Part shown: piece after piece, positions 2,355-5,852 of the stretch
Numbering within the stretch: position 1 is the stretch's first letter
Layout of the letters: each line of letters opens with the position of its first letter
From: a virus
Taxonomy: Duplodnaviria; Heunggongvirae; Uroviricota; Caudoviricetes
Length of the DNA: 5,852 nucleotides
IMG/VR virus record: IMGVR_UViG_2698536408_000010
Strand: one strand, 5' to 3'
The notes under the pieces: model-generated
What the model saw: only the letters and a program-made list of their open reading frames with translations
Databases searched by the model: none
What the model was told of the DNA's origin: nothing
Position numbers and translations under genes: made by a program

Positions 2355-2380
2355 GGCTCGCTTTTGCGGGCCTTTTTTTT
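2355..2380 (+). terminator. Rho-independent terminator after the tRNA pair
   Basis: Stem ggctcgc/gcgggcc (one G-U), tttt loop, followed by T8 (2373-2380). Confidence 0.7.
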
Positions 2381-2598
2381 AAATGTCTCACAATTCAGAC
2401 GGTTGACAGTTGTCTGTTTTGCGGGGAGTTTGTTAAAAGAAACTGGCATGGTGAATCCCCCTGTGCGGAGGGGCAATCAGCGAGTAGGTATATGGGATAA
2501 TCGCGGATTCAGGTGCTGGTACTGAATTCACCGGGAGGCACCCGGCATCATGCAATGGCACATAGCGCCACTCTCCAGCCCTCTCCGGAGGGGCTTTT
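2376..2598 (+). repeat. R1: ~220-bp structured noncoding module, copy 1 (near-identical to 4836-5060)
   Basis: Shares about 215 bp with copy 2, with about 5 differences. Contains TTGACA (2403-2408), several short GC stems (cccct..agggg, ccggg..cccgg) and a terminal hairpin ccctc/gaggg followed by tttt (2579-2598). Small ORFs inside do not keep frame between copies. Confidence 0.75.
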
Positions 2599-2827
2599 CT
2601 GTGCCGGATACATCACAGTTTCTGGAACCTTAGGTACTACAGTATCAGTCAGGGTGCTATATTTTCAGATGTGATGAAAGCCTGTCAGCAGGCAGGGCGT
2701 ATCGGAAATGACCCAGTAGAGAAAACGTTGACTCAGATACCGGTGCTGAGTTACCGGGAAACCGGCATCACATGACCGCTATCCTGAGGTGTACTGGCAA
2801 TAGCGGACACTACCATTTGTTCTTTTT

Positions 2828-3646
2828 TTAAGCAGCCATCTGATGATATTTTTCCCTGAAGGCTGCCGGGGAGATATTCCCCAGACGAGAGTGACGACGC
2901 TGACGATTGTAGAAAATCTCAATGTATTCCCGTATTACTGAGATGGCTTCATCCCGGTTATTAAAACGATAGTGGCTCAGGCTCTCATTTTTCAGCGTTC
3001 CCCAGAAGCTTTCCATCGGAGCGTTGTCGTAACAGTTACCTTTACGCGACATTGATGTTTTCAGACCAGACTGCTCCTGTATGACCCGGTAATCGTATGC
3101 GCAGTACTGTGAACCTCGATCAGAGTGGTGGATTAGCCCGGCAGGTGGGCGCTGGCTCCTGAGCGCCATAAACAGGGCTTTACCTGTCAGCTCTTTTGTC
3201 ATGCGCTCTCCCATGGCGTAGCCGACAATTTCGCACGTATAAACATCTTTGATGCCAGCGAGGTACAACCATCCCTCCTGTGTGGCAACATACGTCAGGT
3301 CCGCCACCCAGACCTGATTTGGTGCTGTAGGAGCGAACGTCTGGTTCAGCAGATTTGGCGCAACTGGCAGATTGTGGTTCGAGTTCGTAGTCGCTCTGAA
3401 CTTGCGTTTCTGCTTACAGCGTAGCCTTAGCTCCTTACGAAGACGTGCCAGTCGGTCACGACCAACGATGATGCCATTCTCTGCCAGCTCCGTCTGGAGC
3501 CGCCGGGTTCCATATGTTTCGCGAGTGCGGATATGTGCCACCTTAATCTCCAGTTTTAGCCGCTCATCACTTTGTTTTCTGTCTGAGGGTTCATGCTGTA
3601 CCCAGTTGTAATAACCGCTCCTGGATACACCAAATACCTGACACAT
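2828..3646 (-). CDS. IS3-family transposase OrfB (DDE integrase catalytic domain); in vivo made as OrfAB by -1 frameshift
   Basis: 272-aa ORF with HHSDRGSQY, MSRKGNCYDNAPMESFW and YNRQRRHSRLGNISP motifs typical of IS3-family OrfB. The frame stays open upstream to the slippery site near 3727-3733. Confidence 0.9.
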   Translation of the reverse strand: MCQVFGVSRSGYYNWVQHEPSDRKQSDERLKLEIKVAHIRTRETYGTRRLQTELAENGIIVGRDRLARLRKELRLRCKQKRKFRATTNSNHNLPVAPNLLNQTFAPTAPNQVWVADLTYVATQEGWLYLAGIKDVYTCEIVGYAMGERMTKELTGKALFMALRSQRPPAGLIHHSDRGSQYCAYDYRVIQEQSGLKTSMSRKGNCYDNAPMESFWGTLKNESLSHYRFNNRDEAISVIREYIEIFYNRQRRHSRLGNISPAAFREKYHQMAA

Positions 3647-3681
3647 CGCTTCAATGGGAAATTGTTGTCGCCATTGTTCGA

Positions 3682-3912
3682 TTAACGCGTATTTTTCAGC
3701 GACTCCTGTGCAAAATACGCTGTTGCTTTTTTTAATATATCTCGCTCAAGGCGAGCTTCATTTAACGCCTTACGCAGTTGCAGAATTTCAGATTCCAGTT
3801 CAGCCACCGTGCGGGAACCAGGAGTACCGAGCCCTTTTCTGGCGGCGGTAACCCATTGTCCTAAAGTGCCTTCAGGAAGAGATAATCGGGAAGCGCCTTC
3901 ACTGATCGAAAG
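3682..3912 (-). CDS. IS3-family transposase OrfA (HTH/leucine-zipper part), N-terminus lost in N run
   Basis: Translation ...TVAELESEILQLRKALNEARLERDILKKATAYFAQESLKNTR resembles IS911-type OrfA C-terminus. The tracked ORF extends through the Ns into antisense tRNA sequence, which is artefactual. Confidence 0.75.
   Translation of the reverse strand, partial: LSISEGASRLSLPEGTLGQWVTAARKGLGTPGSRTVAELESEILQLRKALNEARLERDILKKATAYFAQESLKNTR
3727..3733 (-). other. Programmed -1 ribosomal frameshift heptamer A_AAA_AAA linking OrfA and OrfB
   Basis: Seven T on + strand (seven A on coding strand) in the OrfA frame within ...DILKKATAYF; shifting -1 here joins onto ...LIEQWRQQFPIEAMCQVFGVSRSGYYNW. Confidence 0.6.
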
Positions 3913-3923
3913 NNNNNNNNNNN
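3913..3923. other. Assembly gap or masked bases (11 N)
   Basis: Run of n; IS sequence on one side, tRNA-flanking sequence on the other, so true adjacency is unknown. Confidence 0.95.
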
Positions 3924-3929
3924 GCTCCC

Positions 3930-4005
3930 GGCCCTTTAGCTCAGTGGTGAGAGCGAGCGACTCATAATCGCCAGGTCGCTGGTTCAAATCCAGCAAGGGC
4001 CACCA
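3930..4005 (+). tRNA. ileZ: tRNA-Ile2 (CAU), second copy, identical to 2088-2163
   Basis: Same 76-nt sequence as copy 1, including 6 nt of upstream flank (gctccc). Confidence 0.85.
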
Positions 4006-4105
4006 TCACAAACCGCCATTAGCTTATCAGGAAGAGCAGACGACACGATAACAGGGTTGTTGGTGCGGGGGCGGGTCCCCGATGGCGGTCCATTATCGGT
4101 ATTCA

Positions 4106-4182
4106 GCGTTGTTAGCTCAGCCGGACAGAGCAATTGCCTTCTAAGCAATCGGTCACTGGTTCGAATCCAGTACAGCGCGCCA
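4106..4182 (+). tRNA. tRNA-Arg (UCU), second copy, one substitution in acceptor stem
   Basis: Identical to 2264-2340 except A to G at 4175 (versus 2333), making a U4-G69 wobble; downstream flank differs and has no terminator. Confidence 0.85.
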
Positions 4183-4292
4183 TATTCATTCTTCCAGATT
4201 CCTTCCGGCAGAGCCTTATACTGAAATATACCTGGCTCAGGATATTGTTGAAAATATTTTATGTTTGTCAAAAATAAAAGTTCTGTTAAGTA

Positions 4293-4646
4293 TTGATTGA
4301 GTGTTTGTTATACGGTCTAATGGTTTTTTCAGCATTAAATATTTATCATTCATATGGTGTGGGTAGAGTGAATATTGATGAGGCGTCGGGGTGTTTCATC
4401 CTTAGGCAGCGTATTGATATAGTCAATGCAGCACGAGCAAAGGCCTTCAGCCGTTTGACAGTTTTGTTCTGTACTCCTGATCGTCTTTCGGGAAGAGACG
4501 TTATTATTCTGAATAGTGATGCTATACAGAGGGTTTGCGATGAGTTCATGGTTGCTAATTCAGAATTATTTGCTCTTGTTCAGGAGTACAACAGAATAGC
4601 CAGGACCTGTGGTATGGATGAACTTCGGATTACTCATCTGGGGTAG
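4293..4646 (+). CDS. Hypothetical protein (up to 117 aa), AT-rich cargo gene rich in AGA/AGG/ATA codons
   Basis: A 354-nt open frame in AT-rich DNA is unlikely by chance. 6 of 11 Arg codons are AGA/AGG and 3 Ile codons are ATA. Start is uncertain (TTG 4293, ATG 4320 or GTG 4367) and no clear SD is present. No family recognised. Confidence 0.45.
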   Translation: MIECLLYGLMVFSALNIYHSYGVGRVNIDEASGCFILRQRIDIVNAARAKAFSRLTVLFCTPDRLSGRDVIILNSDAIQRVCDEFMVANSELFALVQEYNRIARTCGMDELRITHLG

Positions 4647-4813: not shown

Positions 4814-4835
4814 CCGGGTATCAGTTAGCGGGAGA

Positions 4836-5060
4836 AATTTTTAAATACTTCACAATTCAGGCGGTTGACTGTTGTCTGGTTTGCGGGGAGTTTGTTAAAA
4901 GAAACTGGCATGGTGAATCCCCCTGTGCGGAGGGGCAATCAGCGAGTAGGTATATGGGATAATCGCGGATTCAGGTGCTGGTACTGAATTCACCGGGAGG
5001 CACCCGGCACCATGCAATGGCACATAGCGCCACTCTCCAGCCCCTCTCCGGAGGGGCTGT
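4836..5060 (+). repeat. R2: ~220-bp structured noncoding module, copy 2 (near-identical to 2376-2598)
   Basis: Same module as R1 with TTGACT in place of TTGACA and one extra C in the terminal hairpin (7-bp stem gcccctc/gaggggc, 5040-5057). Confidence 0.75.
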
Positions 5061-5076
5061 TTATATTGATTTTGTC
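5040..5076 (+). terminator. Terminator-like hairpin at the end of R2
   Basis: 7-bp GC stem with tccg loop followed by tgtttatattgattttg (T-rich but interrupted). Confidence 0.5.
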
Positions 5077-5090
5077 AGATGTGAGTAAAC

Positions 5091-5124
5091 TCCTTATGGA
5101 CTTTGTTGTTTTAGTCCATAAGGA
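5091..5124. other. Perfect 12-bp inverted repeat spanning the stop codon of the minus-strand 111-aa ORF
   Basis: tccttatggact (5091-5102) pairs with agtccataagga (5113-5124), 10-nt loop. It lies between the convergent R2 module and the minus-strand ORF. Confidence 0.5.
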
Positions 5125-5429
5125 CATATTTGCAGAGTGCAACGGTTATTAAAGCATTCATTCAATACGTTATCTGTATTTGTAGGGCATTCCTGGCTAT
5201 TTTTGATTGAATTCCAGAATGTTTTATTGAATGGTACTACGTTGTAAATGGTTACAGGTAGCACTTTGTTATTGAGCATGATGCCTGTGTGAGTCAGTGT
5301 AAATATACTTTCAGGAGGTAAGAAAGCATCCGATTGATACCAGATTATTAATTTTATTTTACTCCATATGACTGAAAAAGATATTCCGCATGATGGCTGG
5401 ATAACTGTATCAATCACAATCCACTTCAT
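5094..5429 (-). CDS. Hypothetical Cys-containing protein (111 aa), AT-rich cargo gene
   Basis: ATG at 5429 (minus) preceded by aaggaaa 5 nt upstream (strong SD). At least six ATA Ile codons. C-terminal region has 5 Cys ([26 protein letters not shown]). No family recognised. Confidence 0.6.
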
Positions 5430-5689: not shown

Positions 5690-5816
5690 ATGGCATTTAA
5701 ACACTATGATGTTGTCAGGGCGGCGCCGCCGTCAGATCTTGCGGAAAAGCTGACACATAAACTGAAAGAGGGCTGGCAGCCGTTTGGTAGTCCGGTGGCC
5801 ATAACCCCTTATACCC
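5690..5816 (+). CDS. N-terminal 42 codons of a small lambdoid-prophage protein (MAFKHYDVVRAAPPSDLAEKL..., possibly DUF1737-like), interrupted by IS end
   Basis: ATG 5690 with ggtggaaag SD-like sequence 6 nt upstream. The frame runs without a stop into the IS terminal sequence starting at 5817. The family assignment is from memory and tentative. Confidence 0.55.
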
Positions 5817-5852
5817 TGAGGTGTACTGGCAATAGCGGACACTACCATTTGT
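5817..5852 (-). mobile_element. IS3-family terminal end (second copy of the end seen at 2785-2820), continues beyond window
   Basis: 36 nt identical to 2785-2820 (tgaggtgtactggcaatagcggacactaccatttgt), same orientation. Confidence 0.8.

Follow-up and report, generated by a model that had tools for sequence, protein, structure and literature searches.

Two copies of the prophage small RNA gene STnc100, with a covarying pseudoknotted core, in a decayed lambdoid late region

The late region and its repeated module

The window, that is, the whole stretch of 5,852 nucleotides analysed here, is the decayed late region of a lambdoid prophage in which a Q antiterminator gene, a DNA methylase gene, a tRNA pair, STnc100, and nanS-p and lysis genes follow one another with IS3-family insertions between them. 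Pfam searches of its open reading frames identified Antiterm Q (PF03589), N6_N4_Mtase, and a DUF1737 fragment, and ARAGORN and Rfam placed the tRNA pair on the plus strand at 2088–2340, as a tRNA with a CAT anticodon (tRNA-Ile in the annotation of the E. coli homologue) and a tRNA-Arg(TCT). This pair, which ends in a plus-strand terminator detected by scanning at 2355–2372, lies directly upstream of the first copy of the repeat (R1), and a second copy of the tRNA pair, on the same strand at 3930–4182, lies upstream of the second (R2). The tRNA pair and the STnc100 module are duplicated around a truncated IS; in fact, two decayed prophage late regions stand side by side, which explains the duplication of the module in the window. 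Two IS3-family insertions, from 2785 onward and from 5812 onward, cut a third, divergent module (M2) and the DUF1737/nanS-p gene. The intact prophage of E. coli ATCC 11775 runs from Q through the methylase, the tRNAs, and three tandem modules to a DUF1737 (nanS-p) remnant, a holin, and a lysozyme, and the late-region order around STnc100 in the window is found both there and in the Sakai phage.

R1 (2376–2598) and R2 (4836–5060) are separated by 8 substitutions and one indel, more than the about 5 differing positions counted in the original prediction; the duplicated module of ~220 bp described there was borne out by an ungapped repeat search (2363–2581 and 4825–5043, 94% identity) and by gapped alignments, in which the homology begins at ~2376/4838 and reaches as far as 2595/5059, where the terminator stem ends. 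A 220-bp repeat at ~96% identity is far beyond chance, and the offset of +2462 between the copies holds in the same register for the promoter elements. Of the eight substitutions, six precede the predicted start of the transcript. The predicted RNA bodies differ at two places in total, namely U2548 in R1 versus C5010 in R2, by which a G-U pair replaces a G-C pair in helix P1 of R1, and the 1-nt indel (CCC at 2579–2581 versus CCCC at 5041–5044), which bulges the R1 terminator stem; the eighth substitution, T2596 versus G, is located in the U-tract. The indel had been taken to shift every internal small ORF, and it is indeed present, but it shifts only the ORFs that span the terminator and is therefore a weak non-coding argument by itself.

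The two private mutations of R1 weaken the structure of P1 and of the terminator, and its best match in other genomes reaches 98.3% identity; R2 is 100% identical, among the matches listed, to copies in other E. coli genomes, SK1144 being one of them, and for this copy 1360 records have a best match of at least 99% identity. The state of R1, together with the insertions that cut M2 and DUF1737/nanS-p and the duplication around a truncated IS, would suit a view of both copies as inert relics of degraded prophages acting at most as terminators; this is very improbable, since R2 keeps its predicted promoter, the core, and a perfect terminator stem in addition to its identity with copies elsewhere, and PasD and EcOnc RNAs are expressed from cryptic prophages, so that the sRNAs of defective prophages can stay active.

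In tandem after R1, on the plus strand at 2668–2784, lies the divergent STnc100-like module M2, which gives a weak Rfam match (2645–2833, 21.8 bits, E 0.14). It has a P1 formed by AUGUGAUG (2668–2675) and CAUCACAU (2766–2773), a P2 (GCCUG-UCAG-CAGGC), a P6 (CCGG-GAAA-CCGG), and a possible pseudoknot (UAUCGG/CCGGUG); compensatory changes relative to R1 can be read directly in P1 and P2. The linker and the terminator of M2 were lost to the IS insertion at 2785, whereas the intact M2 of E. coli ATCC 11775 (L001 4806–4979) scores 30.1 bits (E 3e-4) and runs into the terminator GGCCCATCCGCTCCGGTGGGCCTTTTT.

Membership in the STnc100 family

Positions 2417–2606 of R1 and 4879–5068 of R2 match the covariance model RF02076 (STnc100) over its full length (model positions 1–206 of 206) with 123.6 and 132.4 bits, respectively, both above the curated gathering score of 47 bits that is the cut-off for membership. 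R1 and R2 are two copies of a catalogued prophage sRNA gene, and the element, which the original prediction had not matched to a known sRNA, was already present in Rfam. The family was originally predicted in Salmonella. Near-identical copies occur in 2719–2860 of 5426 complete E. coli genomes, about half, with up to 13 copies per genome; the finding is real but ordinary.

Few sRNA families are annotated as abundantly as STnc100, and its function entry in an Rfam-based review is "-" (PMC9029176). The copies of EDL933 are expressed, STnc100_4 is northern-positive, and some copies show ribosome footprints (PMC5331693), while EcOnc27/sRNA103, supported by Hfq-CRAC and northern analysis, overlaps STnc100 downstream of stx2B in EHEC (PMC12711010, PMC7873438). 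PasD1 and PasD2 of EPEC E2348/69, homologous to EHEC EcOnc13 (PMC8550237 table S6), are northern-positive RNAs of 172–173 nt with Hfq-dependent stability and RIL-seq targets (PMC8550237), and PasD and STnc100 have been called structurally homologous (bioRxiv 10.64898/2026.05.13.724894). The reading of the repeat as a structured small RNA is therefore supported, both copies being STnc100 and family members or relatives being discrete Hfq-associated transcripts by northern, Hfq-CRAC, and RIL-seq analyses (PMC5331693, PMC8550237, PMC7873438, PMC12711010). In pathogenic E. coli, STnc100 adjoins stx2 and nanS-p, and SNPs just upstream of it have been picked out as predictors of HUS (PMC12711010).

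The window copies share with STnc100/EcOnc27 the full-length model match, the position between Q/tRNA or stx and nanS-p/lysis genes, the promoter layout, and the terminator. The STnc100 of the Sakai Stx2 phage (207.7 bits) has the upstream sequence TTGACAGTTGCCT...TGTTAAAAA in common with the window, but the 3' linker and the terminator of this Stx2-phage allele differ in sequence from those of the window alleles. The Sakai phage also carries a convergent AsxR/AgvB partner, in place of which the window has the same-strand divergent module after R1; AsxR and AgvB (RF02703 and RF02702) gave no match in the window on either strand at E<=1, against 88.1 bits for the Sakai phage as positive control of the AsxR search, and an opposite-strand partner of this kind was discarded.

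PasD has in common with R1 and R2 the promoter spacing, the 5' end at the first base of P1, the P1 sequence GCAUGGUG, P2, P5, a covarying pseudoknot (AAUGAUC/GAUCAUU), the position before nanS-p/holin, and a Rho-independent terminator. In contrast to the window copies, it scores 37.7 bits against the STnc100 model, below the threshold of 47, and is without the full P6 hairpin, with a longer linker that contains a UGUGAG seed and a length of 172–173 nt. The PasD1 sequence has the core helices in common with R1 but departs from it in the P6 region, the linker, and the terminator. No UGUGAG was found upstream of the R1 and R2 terminators, and the window linker CACUCUCC differs from that of PasD, so that the PasD target set is not transferable to R1 and R2.

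A conserved core with a covarying pseudoknot

The structured core of R1, delimited by the STnc100 covariance match, the minimum free energy (MFE) fold, and covariation, extends on the plus strand from 2446 to 2553. It comprises P1 (2446–2453/2546–2553) and P5 (2505–2512/2522–2529), both given by the MFE fold and by covariation, P2 (2457–2461/2467–2472, with A2469 bulged) and P6 (2531–2535/2541–2545), given by the MFE fold, P3 (2473–2474/2503–2504), given by covariation, and a pseudoknot between AUCAGC at 2476–2481 and GCUGGU at 2515–2520 in the P5 loop, given by duplex tests. The core of R2 occupies 4908–5015 on the same strand, with an all Watson-Crick P1 (4908–4915/5008–5015), P5 at 4967–4974/4984–4991, P6 at 4993–4997/5003–5007, and the pseudoknot at 4938–4943/4977–4982, and in R1 as in R2 the MFE fold contains P1, P2, P5, P6, and the terminator. 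The core is thus a compact five-helix junction with a pseudoknot, a fold more elaborate than the published one; in particular, the pairing 2476–2481/2515–2520 was found neither in the Rfam consensus line nor in the published descriptions consulted.

Over 91 diverse Enterobacterales homologues, 94.6% of the helix cells pair, versus ~43% when the partners are slid, and the covariation amounts to 0.359, a value reached by none of 500 shuffles, versus ~0.06; of the six helices, covariation is seen in four, namely P1, P3, P5, and the pseudoknot. The pseudoknot was scored by duplex tests within versus across sequences; column-wise counting was abandoned because the MAFFT alignment sets the P5 loop out of register, the partner of column 44 shifting by 3 columns between the window and homologue L003. 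A helix GCGA/UCGC of the MFE fold (2480–2483/2501–2504) was rejected as a family helix, as it conflicts with the pseudoknot and with the covarying register of P3 (columns 37–39/101–103). The short GC stems from which structure had originally been argued carry little weight, the fold of R1 being as stable as that of shuffled sequences (z = -0.25); R2 folds at -69.5 kcal/mol with z = -3.1. The thermodynamic score being uninformative for R1, the structure rests on covariation, the check across homologues that had been proposed at the outset and that turned out positive.

These family data also bear on coding capacity. The spacing between the two invariant blocks is distributed over 31, 35, and 47 distinct cores by length modulo 3, with no 3-nt periodicity; 53 of the 91 homologues are without a stop-free frame across the core on the plus strand and 47 on the minus strand, and the open frames that exist keep no consistent register, so that the module is non-coding. 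Short ORFs do overlap it (2513–2674 and 5012–5152 on the plus strand, 2433–2561 on the minus strand), the opposite strand carries a partial "hypothetical protein" in the RefSeq annotation of some genomes, and ribosome footprints lie on some EDL933 copies. Nevertheless, that the module encodes a small protein, or is a DNA-level recombination or attachment site, is exceedingly improbable, the compensatory changes in P1, P3, P5, and the pseudoknot being what is expected from selection on RNA pairing.

Conservation is densest in P1, J1/2, P2, and P6. The mean pairwise identity is 0.79 for the unforced part of P2 and 0.73 for the 3' strand of P1, while promoter region, middle part, and linker each stand at ~0.56; the search for homologues demanded exact matches to parts of P1/P2 and of P6, and the invariance of these parts is therefore partly imposed. 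The concentration of conserved positions in the core, two Shine-Dalgarno-like purine tracts discernible in P2 (GGAGGGG) and P6 (GGGAGG), and the origin of the sponge RNAs AgvB and AsxR in the same prophage region (PMC7873438) could suggest that the RNA sequesters a protein or another RNA through its invariant core, as a decoy or sponge, instead of pairing through the linker. This is quite improbable, given the partly imposed invariance and the fact that PasD and M2 vary these sequences yet retain most of the fold, and RIL-seq puts the interactions of PasD in its 3' part and not in the core.

Transcript, terminator, and proposed function

The predicted sigma-70 promoter of R1 lies at 2410–2439 on the plus strand (-35 TTGTCT 2410–2415, extended -10 TG 2431–2432, -10 TAAAAG 2434–2439), and that of R2 at 4872–4901 on the same strand (TTGTCT 4872–4877, TG 4893–4894, TAAAAG 4896–4901); transcription would start at G2446 and G4908, the first base of P1. 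The assignment of TTGTCT-N18-TAAAAG derives from the alignment of homologues, in which TTGnnn-N17/18-T(T)AAAA recurs ~7–9 nt before the first P1 base, and from PasD1, which has an equivalent layout (TTGACT-N17-TTAAAA) and an RNA-seq-estimated 5' end at the G of GCAUGG (PMC8550237 table S6). The promoter is weak by consensus, and consensus sigma-70 scans of both regions called no plus-strand promoter, the predicted ones included. The hexamers originally flagged, TTGACA at 2403–2408 in R1 and TTGACT at 4865–4870 in R2, are present, but they have no usable -10 at 16–18 nt and no plus-strand match in the scans, and the homologues favour the hexamer 7 nt downstream, which is the likely -35 element. 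From G2446 the predicted RNA would measure ~150–155 nt (R1 ~2446–2600, R2 ~4908–5065) instead of the 170–190 nt first estimated.

The variable 3' linker of R1 (2554–2576, plus strand) contains, in the MFE fold, a hairpin (2556–2559/2567–2570) followed by single-stranded CUCUCC (2571–2576). It leads into an intrinsic terminator, recognized by scan and fold on the plus strand at 2577–2602, with a stem (2577–2595) bulged by the missing C and then UUUUCUGU; the corresponding plus-strand terminator of R2 (5038–5067) has a perfect 9-bp stem, CAGCCCCUC/GAGGGGCUG, a UCCG loop, and the tail UUUAUAUU. The terminal GC hairpin with T-rich sequence is therefore confirmed in both copies (2577–2595 and 5038–5059), against 0.4 such hairpins expected per region from shuffles. 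The U-tails are short or interrupted (UUUUCUGU in R1, UGUUUAUAUU in R2), and the bulged terminator and short U-tract of R1 and the tail UGUUUAUAUU of R2 may make termination and Hfq binding inefficient. The terminator sequences are unrelated between genera, and the internal repeat by which P2 resembles the terminator in the window is confined to Escherichia alleles.

In the 40 nt that follow P1, family members resemble one another no more than shuffled sequences do (identity 0.56 versus 0.55), and no conserved single-stranded seed is present there. A seed is defined within the PasD subgroup only, where the linker/terminator segment of PasD1 holds both the UGUGAG motif and the RIL-seq chimeras (PMC8550237), and to regard CACUCUCC in R1 and R2 as a seed is a guess from that position. 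The seed part is unconserved and the part to which no role is assigned is near-invariant, so that the pattern, an invariant pseudoknotted core and a freely varying "seed" region, is reversed with respect to normal base-pairing sRNAs. Hfq sRNAs, moreover, seldom have a five-helix junction with a pseudoknot.

As STnc100 genes, R1 and R2 probably form their own units and give Hfq-associated RNAs pairing through the linker; the present analysis provides the assignment to the family, the covarying fold, the terminators, and the setting in the late region, and the other steps are drawn from homologues. Each copy would be an independent transcription unit, started by the weak TTGTCT-N18-TAAAAG promoter at the first base of P1, and the RNA would fold into the five-helix junction locked by the pseudoknot, followed by the non-conserved 3' linker and the Rho-independent terminator. 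A stable transcript of ~155 nt would be made in the lysogen and, by analogy with PasD, would associate with Hfq and use the single-stranded linker next to the terminator (...CACUCUCC...) to pair with target mRNAs, the conserved 5' domain being a putative scaffold for stability or partner binding. When the phage grows lytically, RNA polymerase modified by Q would arrive from upstream and pass through the STnc100 terminator, which in the lysogen would also insulate the lysis genes. The region as it stands here is a decaying prophage remnant, with R1 mutated and M2 truncated by the IS.

The lambda 6S RNA is a short terminated pR'-tR' transcript of the late region that also serves as an sRNA. STnc100 would resemble it as a short constitutive transcript that stops at an intrinsic terminator between Q and the lysis genes and through which Q-modified polymerase would read. 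StxS of Stx phages, of the same kind, is likewise Hfq-binding (PMC7873438). The identification of STnc100 as the pR'-tR' transcript of Q was rejected, as in the window a separate terminator (~507–530), the methylase gene, and the tRNAs come after Q and before R1, and in Stx phages the element sits downstream of stx.

The architecture also recalls riboswitch aptamers, which likewise have a multi-helix junction, a covarying pseudoknot, near-invariant junction nucleotides, and a downstream terminator, but in contrast to riboswitches there is no conserved expression platform, the units are tandem and self-contained, and the terminator distance is variable; no Rfam riboswitch or ribozyme model matched in the window. 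Of 89 arrays from other Enterobacterales, 20 are followed by a holin gene, 8 by Phage_lysozyme (PF00959), 1 by GH108, and 1 by GH19, 13 are preceded by the gene of a Q protein, and in 18 (~20%) the core precedes a kdgM porin gene. When a hairpin plus T-tract is strictly required, 50 of 118 family members are without a terminator within 160 nt; many of them are located upstream of kdgM, an arrangement more like a leader than like an sRNA gene.

A cis-acting leader, with the core as an aptamer or protein site controlling downstream nanS-p, holin, or kdgM and the "sRNA" as its terminated form, would account for the aptamer-like features, including near-zero-length linkers and near-invariant junction and loop nucleotides, and for the position, always on the same strand and directly upstream of few gene classes: 87 nt separate the end of PasD2 from the nanS-p gene E2348C_0688, nanS-p of the Sakai phage begins ~200 nt after STnc100, and transcripts of the kdgM-linked members, mostly without an intrinsic terminator, should enter kdgM. 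The leader is nonetheless clearly unlikely: anything between 18 and 123 nt can separate P6 from the terminator, linker length and sequence vary across the family, and no conserved antiterminator pairing of P1 or P6 with the terminator was seen; tandem arrays of 2–4 complete promoter-core-terminator units suit sRNA genes better; the downstream genes are heterogeneous, and in the Sakai phage nanS-p is separated from STnc100 by a convergent sRNA, AsxR; near kdgM, a putative KdgR box and perhaps a promoter distinct from that of the core follow 3' of the core.

A broader proposal, though an unlikely one, is that STnc100 is not primarily a base-pairing sRNA and that its core is a domain dedicated to binding, be it a metabolite, a protein, or the transcription/translation machinery. 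If so, this domain would be reused as a unit before prophage lysis and nanS-p genes and in the 5' leader of chromosomal kdgM-type porins, the variable 3' tails being secondary add-ons. The covarying pseudoknot, P3, and the kdgM-leader context are concrete handles on the role of the core. A link to a sialic-acid ligand, suggested by nanS-p and the KdgM porin, was dropped, as the gene next after the KdgM-family porin encodes a periplasmic pectate lyase, which points to a context of pectin use and not of nan genes.

Identity and spread of the repeated module

The two copies of the repeated module, R1 and R2, belong to a known family of small RNAs: when the full window is searched with Rfam, R1 matches RF02076 (Gammaproteobacterial sRNA STnc100) with 123.6 bits at 2417-2606 and R2 with 132.4 bits at 4879-5068, both spanning the complete model and well above its gathering score of 47 bits. 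The original prediction of a small RNA is thus correct and the finding real, the element itself being already known; the additions are a corrected promoter and length, a pseudoknot, the helix P3, a truncated third module (M2) and a kdgM-leader context. An ungapped repeat search pairs 2363-2581 with 4825-5043 in direct orientation (94% identity) and in gapped alignments the homology starts at about 2376/4838 and stops where a GC-rich hairpin ends, at 2595/5059, confirming a duplication of about 220 bp; within 2376-2598 the copies differ by 8 substitutions, 6 of them upstream of the predicted transcript, and one 1-nt indel, more than the "about 5" differences first counted.

Of 5426 complete E. 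coli genomes, 2719 contain matches to R1 and 2860 to R2, with up to 13 matching places per genome. R2 has 100% identical copies among the other E. coli genomes listed, and the best match reaches at least 99% identity in 1360 records, while the best match of R1 elsewhere is 98.3%. Two changes are private to R1, U2548, which forms a G-U pair in the closing helix P1, and a missing C, which leaves the terminator stem bulged; both lower the predicted stability (-56.8 kcal/mol for R1 vs -69.5 kcal/mol for R2).

In EHEC EDL933 eleven STnc100 copies are transcribed, one being confirmed by northern blot (PMC5331693). Where STnc100 follows stx2B, it overlaps EcOnc27/sRNA103, an Hfq-binding sRNA, and SNPs at this site were among the highest-ranking predictors of HUS (PMC12711010). 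Reviews report that Hfq-binding sRNAs form "dyads" in the interval from the late promoter to the lysis genes, in at least eight Sakai prophages (PMC7873438). The EPEC sRNAs PasD1 and PasD2, reported as structurally homologous to STnc100 (2026 preprint, bioRxiv 10.64898/2026.05.13.724894), are northern-positive, 172-173 nt long and dependent on Hfq for stability, with many RIL-seq partners (PMC8550237). STnc100 is among the most often annotated sRNAs in a survey in which its function field is empty (PMC9029176).

The non-coding reading of the original prediction holds across the family. Two invariant blocks are spaced at every distance between 90 and 116 nt, and the distinct cores are distributed 31/35/47 over the three values of length modulo 3, with no 3-nt periodicity; a stop-free frame is absent from 53 of 91 cores on the plus strand and from 47 of 91 on the minus strand, and the open frames present in some cores have no constant register.

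Fold of the conserved core

Homologues were retrieved by the exact pattern GGTGAATCCCC-N60-90-CCGGGAGGCACCCGG in one genome per species, giving 108 loci in Escherichia, Salmonella, Citrobacter, Klebsiella, Raoultella, Enterobacter, Kosakonia, Leclercia, Pantoea, Erwinia, Rahnella and other genera, several of which are tandem arrays of 2-4 copies. The structure set consists of 91 cores with less than 90% identity, analyzed by RNAalifold and explicit pair counting. The outer pairs of P1 covary (for instance one pair with GC 67 and AU 12 and the next with UA 63 and CG 21), P5 covaries at 7/7 pairs, and a short helix, P3, in which the bases directly 3' of P2 pair with those directly 5' of P5, has a pair that is GC in 38 cores, AU in 18, UA in 15 and CG in 12. 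Paired cells amount to 94.6% vs 41-45% when the partners are slid by 1-3 columns, and the covariation score is 0.359 vs 0.055-0.073, a value reached by 0/500 shuffles. P2 (CCCCC/GGGGG, bulged) and P6 (CCGGG-AGGCA-CCCGG) are invariant in this set, which is uninformative either way because the search pattern forced part of both; independent support comes from M2, which has GCCUG/CAGGC and CCGG/CCGG respectively, and, for P2, from PasD, which has CCUC/GAGG. Since the linkers between helices are 0-3 nt, the core (2446-2553 in R1, 4908-5015 in R2) is a compact five-helix junction.

The 6-10 nt after P2/P3 are complementary to the P5 loop in almost all homologues, with sequences that differ by lineage: AUCAGC (2476-2481) with GCUGGU (2515-2520) in the window, AAUGAUC/GAUCAUU in PasD1, and UCAGUCA/UGACUGG, ACUGGAU/AUCCAGU, UUUGAUC/GAUCAAA or GCCAGUC/GACUGGC in other lineages. 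The mean duplex energy is -9.6 kcal/mol for segments of the same RNA vs -6.4 kcal/mol for segments combined across sequences (z = -13; 0/5000 permutations reach it), and the longest uninterrupted helix has a mean of 6.6 bp vs 4.8 bp, the highest mean of 5000 permutations being 5.24 bp; helices of at least 6 bp are formed by 73/91 own-segment pairs vs 23% of cross pairs, and the set has 75 distinct 5'-strand sequences. The pairing is absent from the Rfam consensus line in the cmscan display, a kind of line that cannot display pseudoknots, and the words pseudoknot, kissing and tertiary do not occur in the PasD/STnc100 preprint; judged from these two sources, this pseudoknot is probably undescribed.

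The weak STnc100 match at 2645-2833 (21.8 bits, E 0.14 in the Rfam scan) is a real though divergent member of the family, M2, located right after R1 at 2668-2784 on the plus strand. Its P1 is formed by AUGUGAUG (2668-2675) and CAUCACAU (2766-2773), P2 is GCCUG-UCAG-CAGGC, P5 GACUCAG/CUGAGUU and P6 CCGG-GAAA-CCGG; the changes in its P1 and P2 are compensatory, and UAUCGG/CCGGUG is a candidate pseudoknot. The intact form in E. coli ATCC 11775 (L001, 4806-4979) runs into the terminator GGCCCATCCGCTCCGGTGGGCCTTTTT; in the window an IS end (TGAGGTGTACTGG...) replaces all sequence from 2785, with loss of linker and terminator. The variant is present in 673 E. coli genomes, where it has no annotation.

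The P2 and terminator hairpins are 75% identical (CCCUGUGCGGAGGGGC vs CCCUCUCCGGAGGGGC; 2459-2478 vs 2579-2598 and 4921-4940 vs 5042-5061), which makes strand exchange between them conceivable; this likeness is limited to Escherichia alleles, and other genera do not share it.

Predicted transcript ends and 3' tail

The hexamers TTGACA and TTGACT are present at 2403-2408 and 4865-4870, and terminator scans find the terminal hairpins with T-rich tails at 2577-2595 and 5038-5059, as originally described. The proposed promoter role of TTGACA is not borne out, as it lacks a -10 hexamer at 16-18 nt, and consensus promoter scans call no plus-strand promoter in R1 or R2. When the flanks of 114 family members are aligned, many homologues outside Escherichia have the element TTGACx-N17-TtAaat, which ends about 7-10 nt short of the start of P1; PasD1 has TTGACT-N17-TTAAAA, and its RNA-seq-estimated 5' end, NC_011601 position 1060260 (PMC8550237), falls on the G of GCAUGGUG, where P1 begins. 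The same register in R1 gives a -35 TTGTCT (2410-2415), a TG (2431-2432) and a -10 TAAAAG (2434-2439), so that alignment, PasD1 end and register point to a promoter other than TTGACA. The predicted start is near G2446 in R1 and G4908 in R2, and, with the terminators as 3' ends, the RNAs would be about 155 nt long, which is below both the span of the Rfam model and the 170-190 nt first estimated.

Two changes that predict HUS, located +90 and +103 after stx2B (PMC12711010), would lie, in phage VT2-Sakai (L111, 1545-1565), in the predicted extended -10 and the -10-to-+1 stretch of the STnc100/EcOnc27 promoter, outside the RNA body, a placement that is approximate because the published numbering derives from a multiple alignment.

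Mean pairwise identity in the family is 0.79 in the unforced part of P2 and 0.73 in the 3' strand of P1; it is 0.57 in the promoter region, 0.58 in the middle of the core and 0.56 in the 40 nt after P1, the shuffled baseline being 0.55. In the core's middle, structure is conserved but sequence is not. The predicted PasD1 seed UGUGAG and the RIL-seq chimeric reads (1060384-1060434) lie within the unconserved linker/terminator part, so that the family combines a conserved 5' scaffold with interchangeable 3' tails. The tail of R1 and R2, AAUGGCACAUAGCGCCACUCUCCAG, forms a small hairpin and then a C/U-rich single strand, which might, as a guess, pair with purine-rich stretches, for example ribosome-binding sites.

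Genomic neighbours and the prophage setting

R1 and R2 are best explained as self-contained sRNA genes of the STnc100 family. Their membership, fold, terminators, non-coding status and place in the genome are shown by the analysis; by analogy with the homologues, they would have their own promoter and start site, associate with Hfq and pair in trans via the 3' linker. The main rival, a cis-acting leader or aptamer, is favored by the architecture of the core and by the kdgM context; against it stand the lack of a conserved link between core and terminator, the self-contained tandem units and the heterogeneous downstream genes. For 89 arrays, a Pfam scan of the next ORF downstream on the same strand gives KdgM porins (18), holins of three Pfam families (20), Phage_lysozyme (PF00959; 8), GH108 (1), GH19 (1) and a DUF1737 + SASA (sialate esterase) protein (1), and upstream of 90 arrays 13 Q antiterminators. 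The kdgM-linked members, in Kosakonia, Klebsiella, Enterobacter and Raoultella, are chromosomal and not prophage-borne. Their core is about 200 nt upstream of kdgM, as in Enterobacter sp. Bisph1 (L052, 3695-4050), where kdgM is directly followed by a periplasmic pectate lyase gene, and likewise in L007, L012, L014, L016, L018, L022, L025, L031, L045, L061, L067, L068, L070, L076, L094 and L105; the two cores scanned score 78-84 bits as STnc100. Since phage genes are absent near these loci and an intrinsic terminator between core and kdgM is mostly lacking, the core may there be part of the kdgM leader, a context that appears not to have been noted before, as the papers cited here treat STnc100 as a phage-origin marker.

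Three to five STnc100 units in tandem, each with its own upstream region, are observed in a Pantoea plasmid (L021, 894-2010), Superficieibacter (L020, 6323-7018), L079 and a Leclercia array (L090, 5406-6576), in which an IsrI-like sRNA lies between units.

The window corresponds to the broken late region of a lambdoid prophage, with a Q antiterminator (51-416, PF03589), a 65-aa ORF (641-838), a DNA methylase (989-2047, Pfam) and tRNA(CAT) plus tRNA-Arg(TCT) (2088-2340), followed by R1 and M2. An IS3-family element with rve integrase domains, resembling IS600 of Shigella, occupies 2785-3912 on the minus strand; its end sequence TGAGGTGTACTGGCAATAGCGGACACTACC is present from 2785 onward and again at 5812-5852, and the first copy seems about 125 bp short at its other end, where a masked N run (3913-3923) joins it to the second tRNA pair (3930-4182). 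Both pairs lie in a 272-bp duplication (2082-2353 and 3924-4195, 98% identity), which points to an IS-mediated rearrangement that joined two prophage late regions. A 117-aa ORF (4293-4646) with no Pfam match at E<=0.01 precedes R2, and an AT-rich stretch follows it, then the first 41 codons of a nanS-p-like DUF1737 protein (5690-5812), cut by the second IS end; DUF1737 is also the N-terminal domain of the DUF1737 + SASA protein among the family neighbours and of the YjhS-like ORF 3' of STnc100 in phage VT2-Sakai, where the order is stx2AB, STnc100 (207.7 bits), convergent AsxR and the YjhS-like gene. Like VT2-Sakai, E. coli ATCC 11775 is an intact relative in which this arrangement recurs, with RusA, Q, small ORF, methylase and three tRNAs, then three tandem modules (STnc100 136 bits, divergent 30 bits, STnc100 161 bits), a DUF1737 remnant, holin, lysozyme and spanin. 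On established lambdoid biology, the module terminators would, as a by-product, insulate the lysis genes of a lysogen from transcription arising at the tRNA genes, and Q-modified polymerase would ignore them.

Among minor features, a masked N run (418-459) covers the end of the Q gene and following sequence and, with the terminator hairpin CCCGCCGCCGAGCGGGTTTTTT (about 507-530, region 500-530), marks the expected place of a StxS-like pR'-tR' short transcript. A terminator-like hairpin with a T-run follows the 65-aa ORF (about 826-850), and the long perfect hairpin GGCTGGTGGGTG...CACCCACCAGCC (about 868-900, region 826-930) has a weak minus-strand match to the Pseudomonas sRNA P26 (24 bits, E 0.09), probably by chance. 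The best partial match to the 272-bp duplication region among the compared loci is E. coli strain ECMA0423 (L093).
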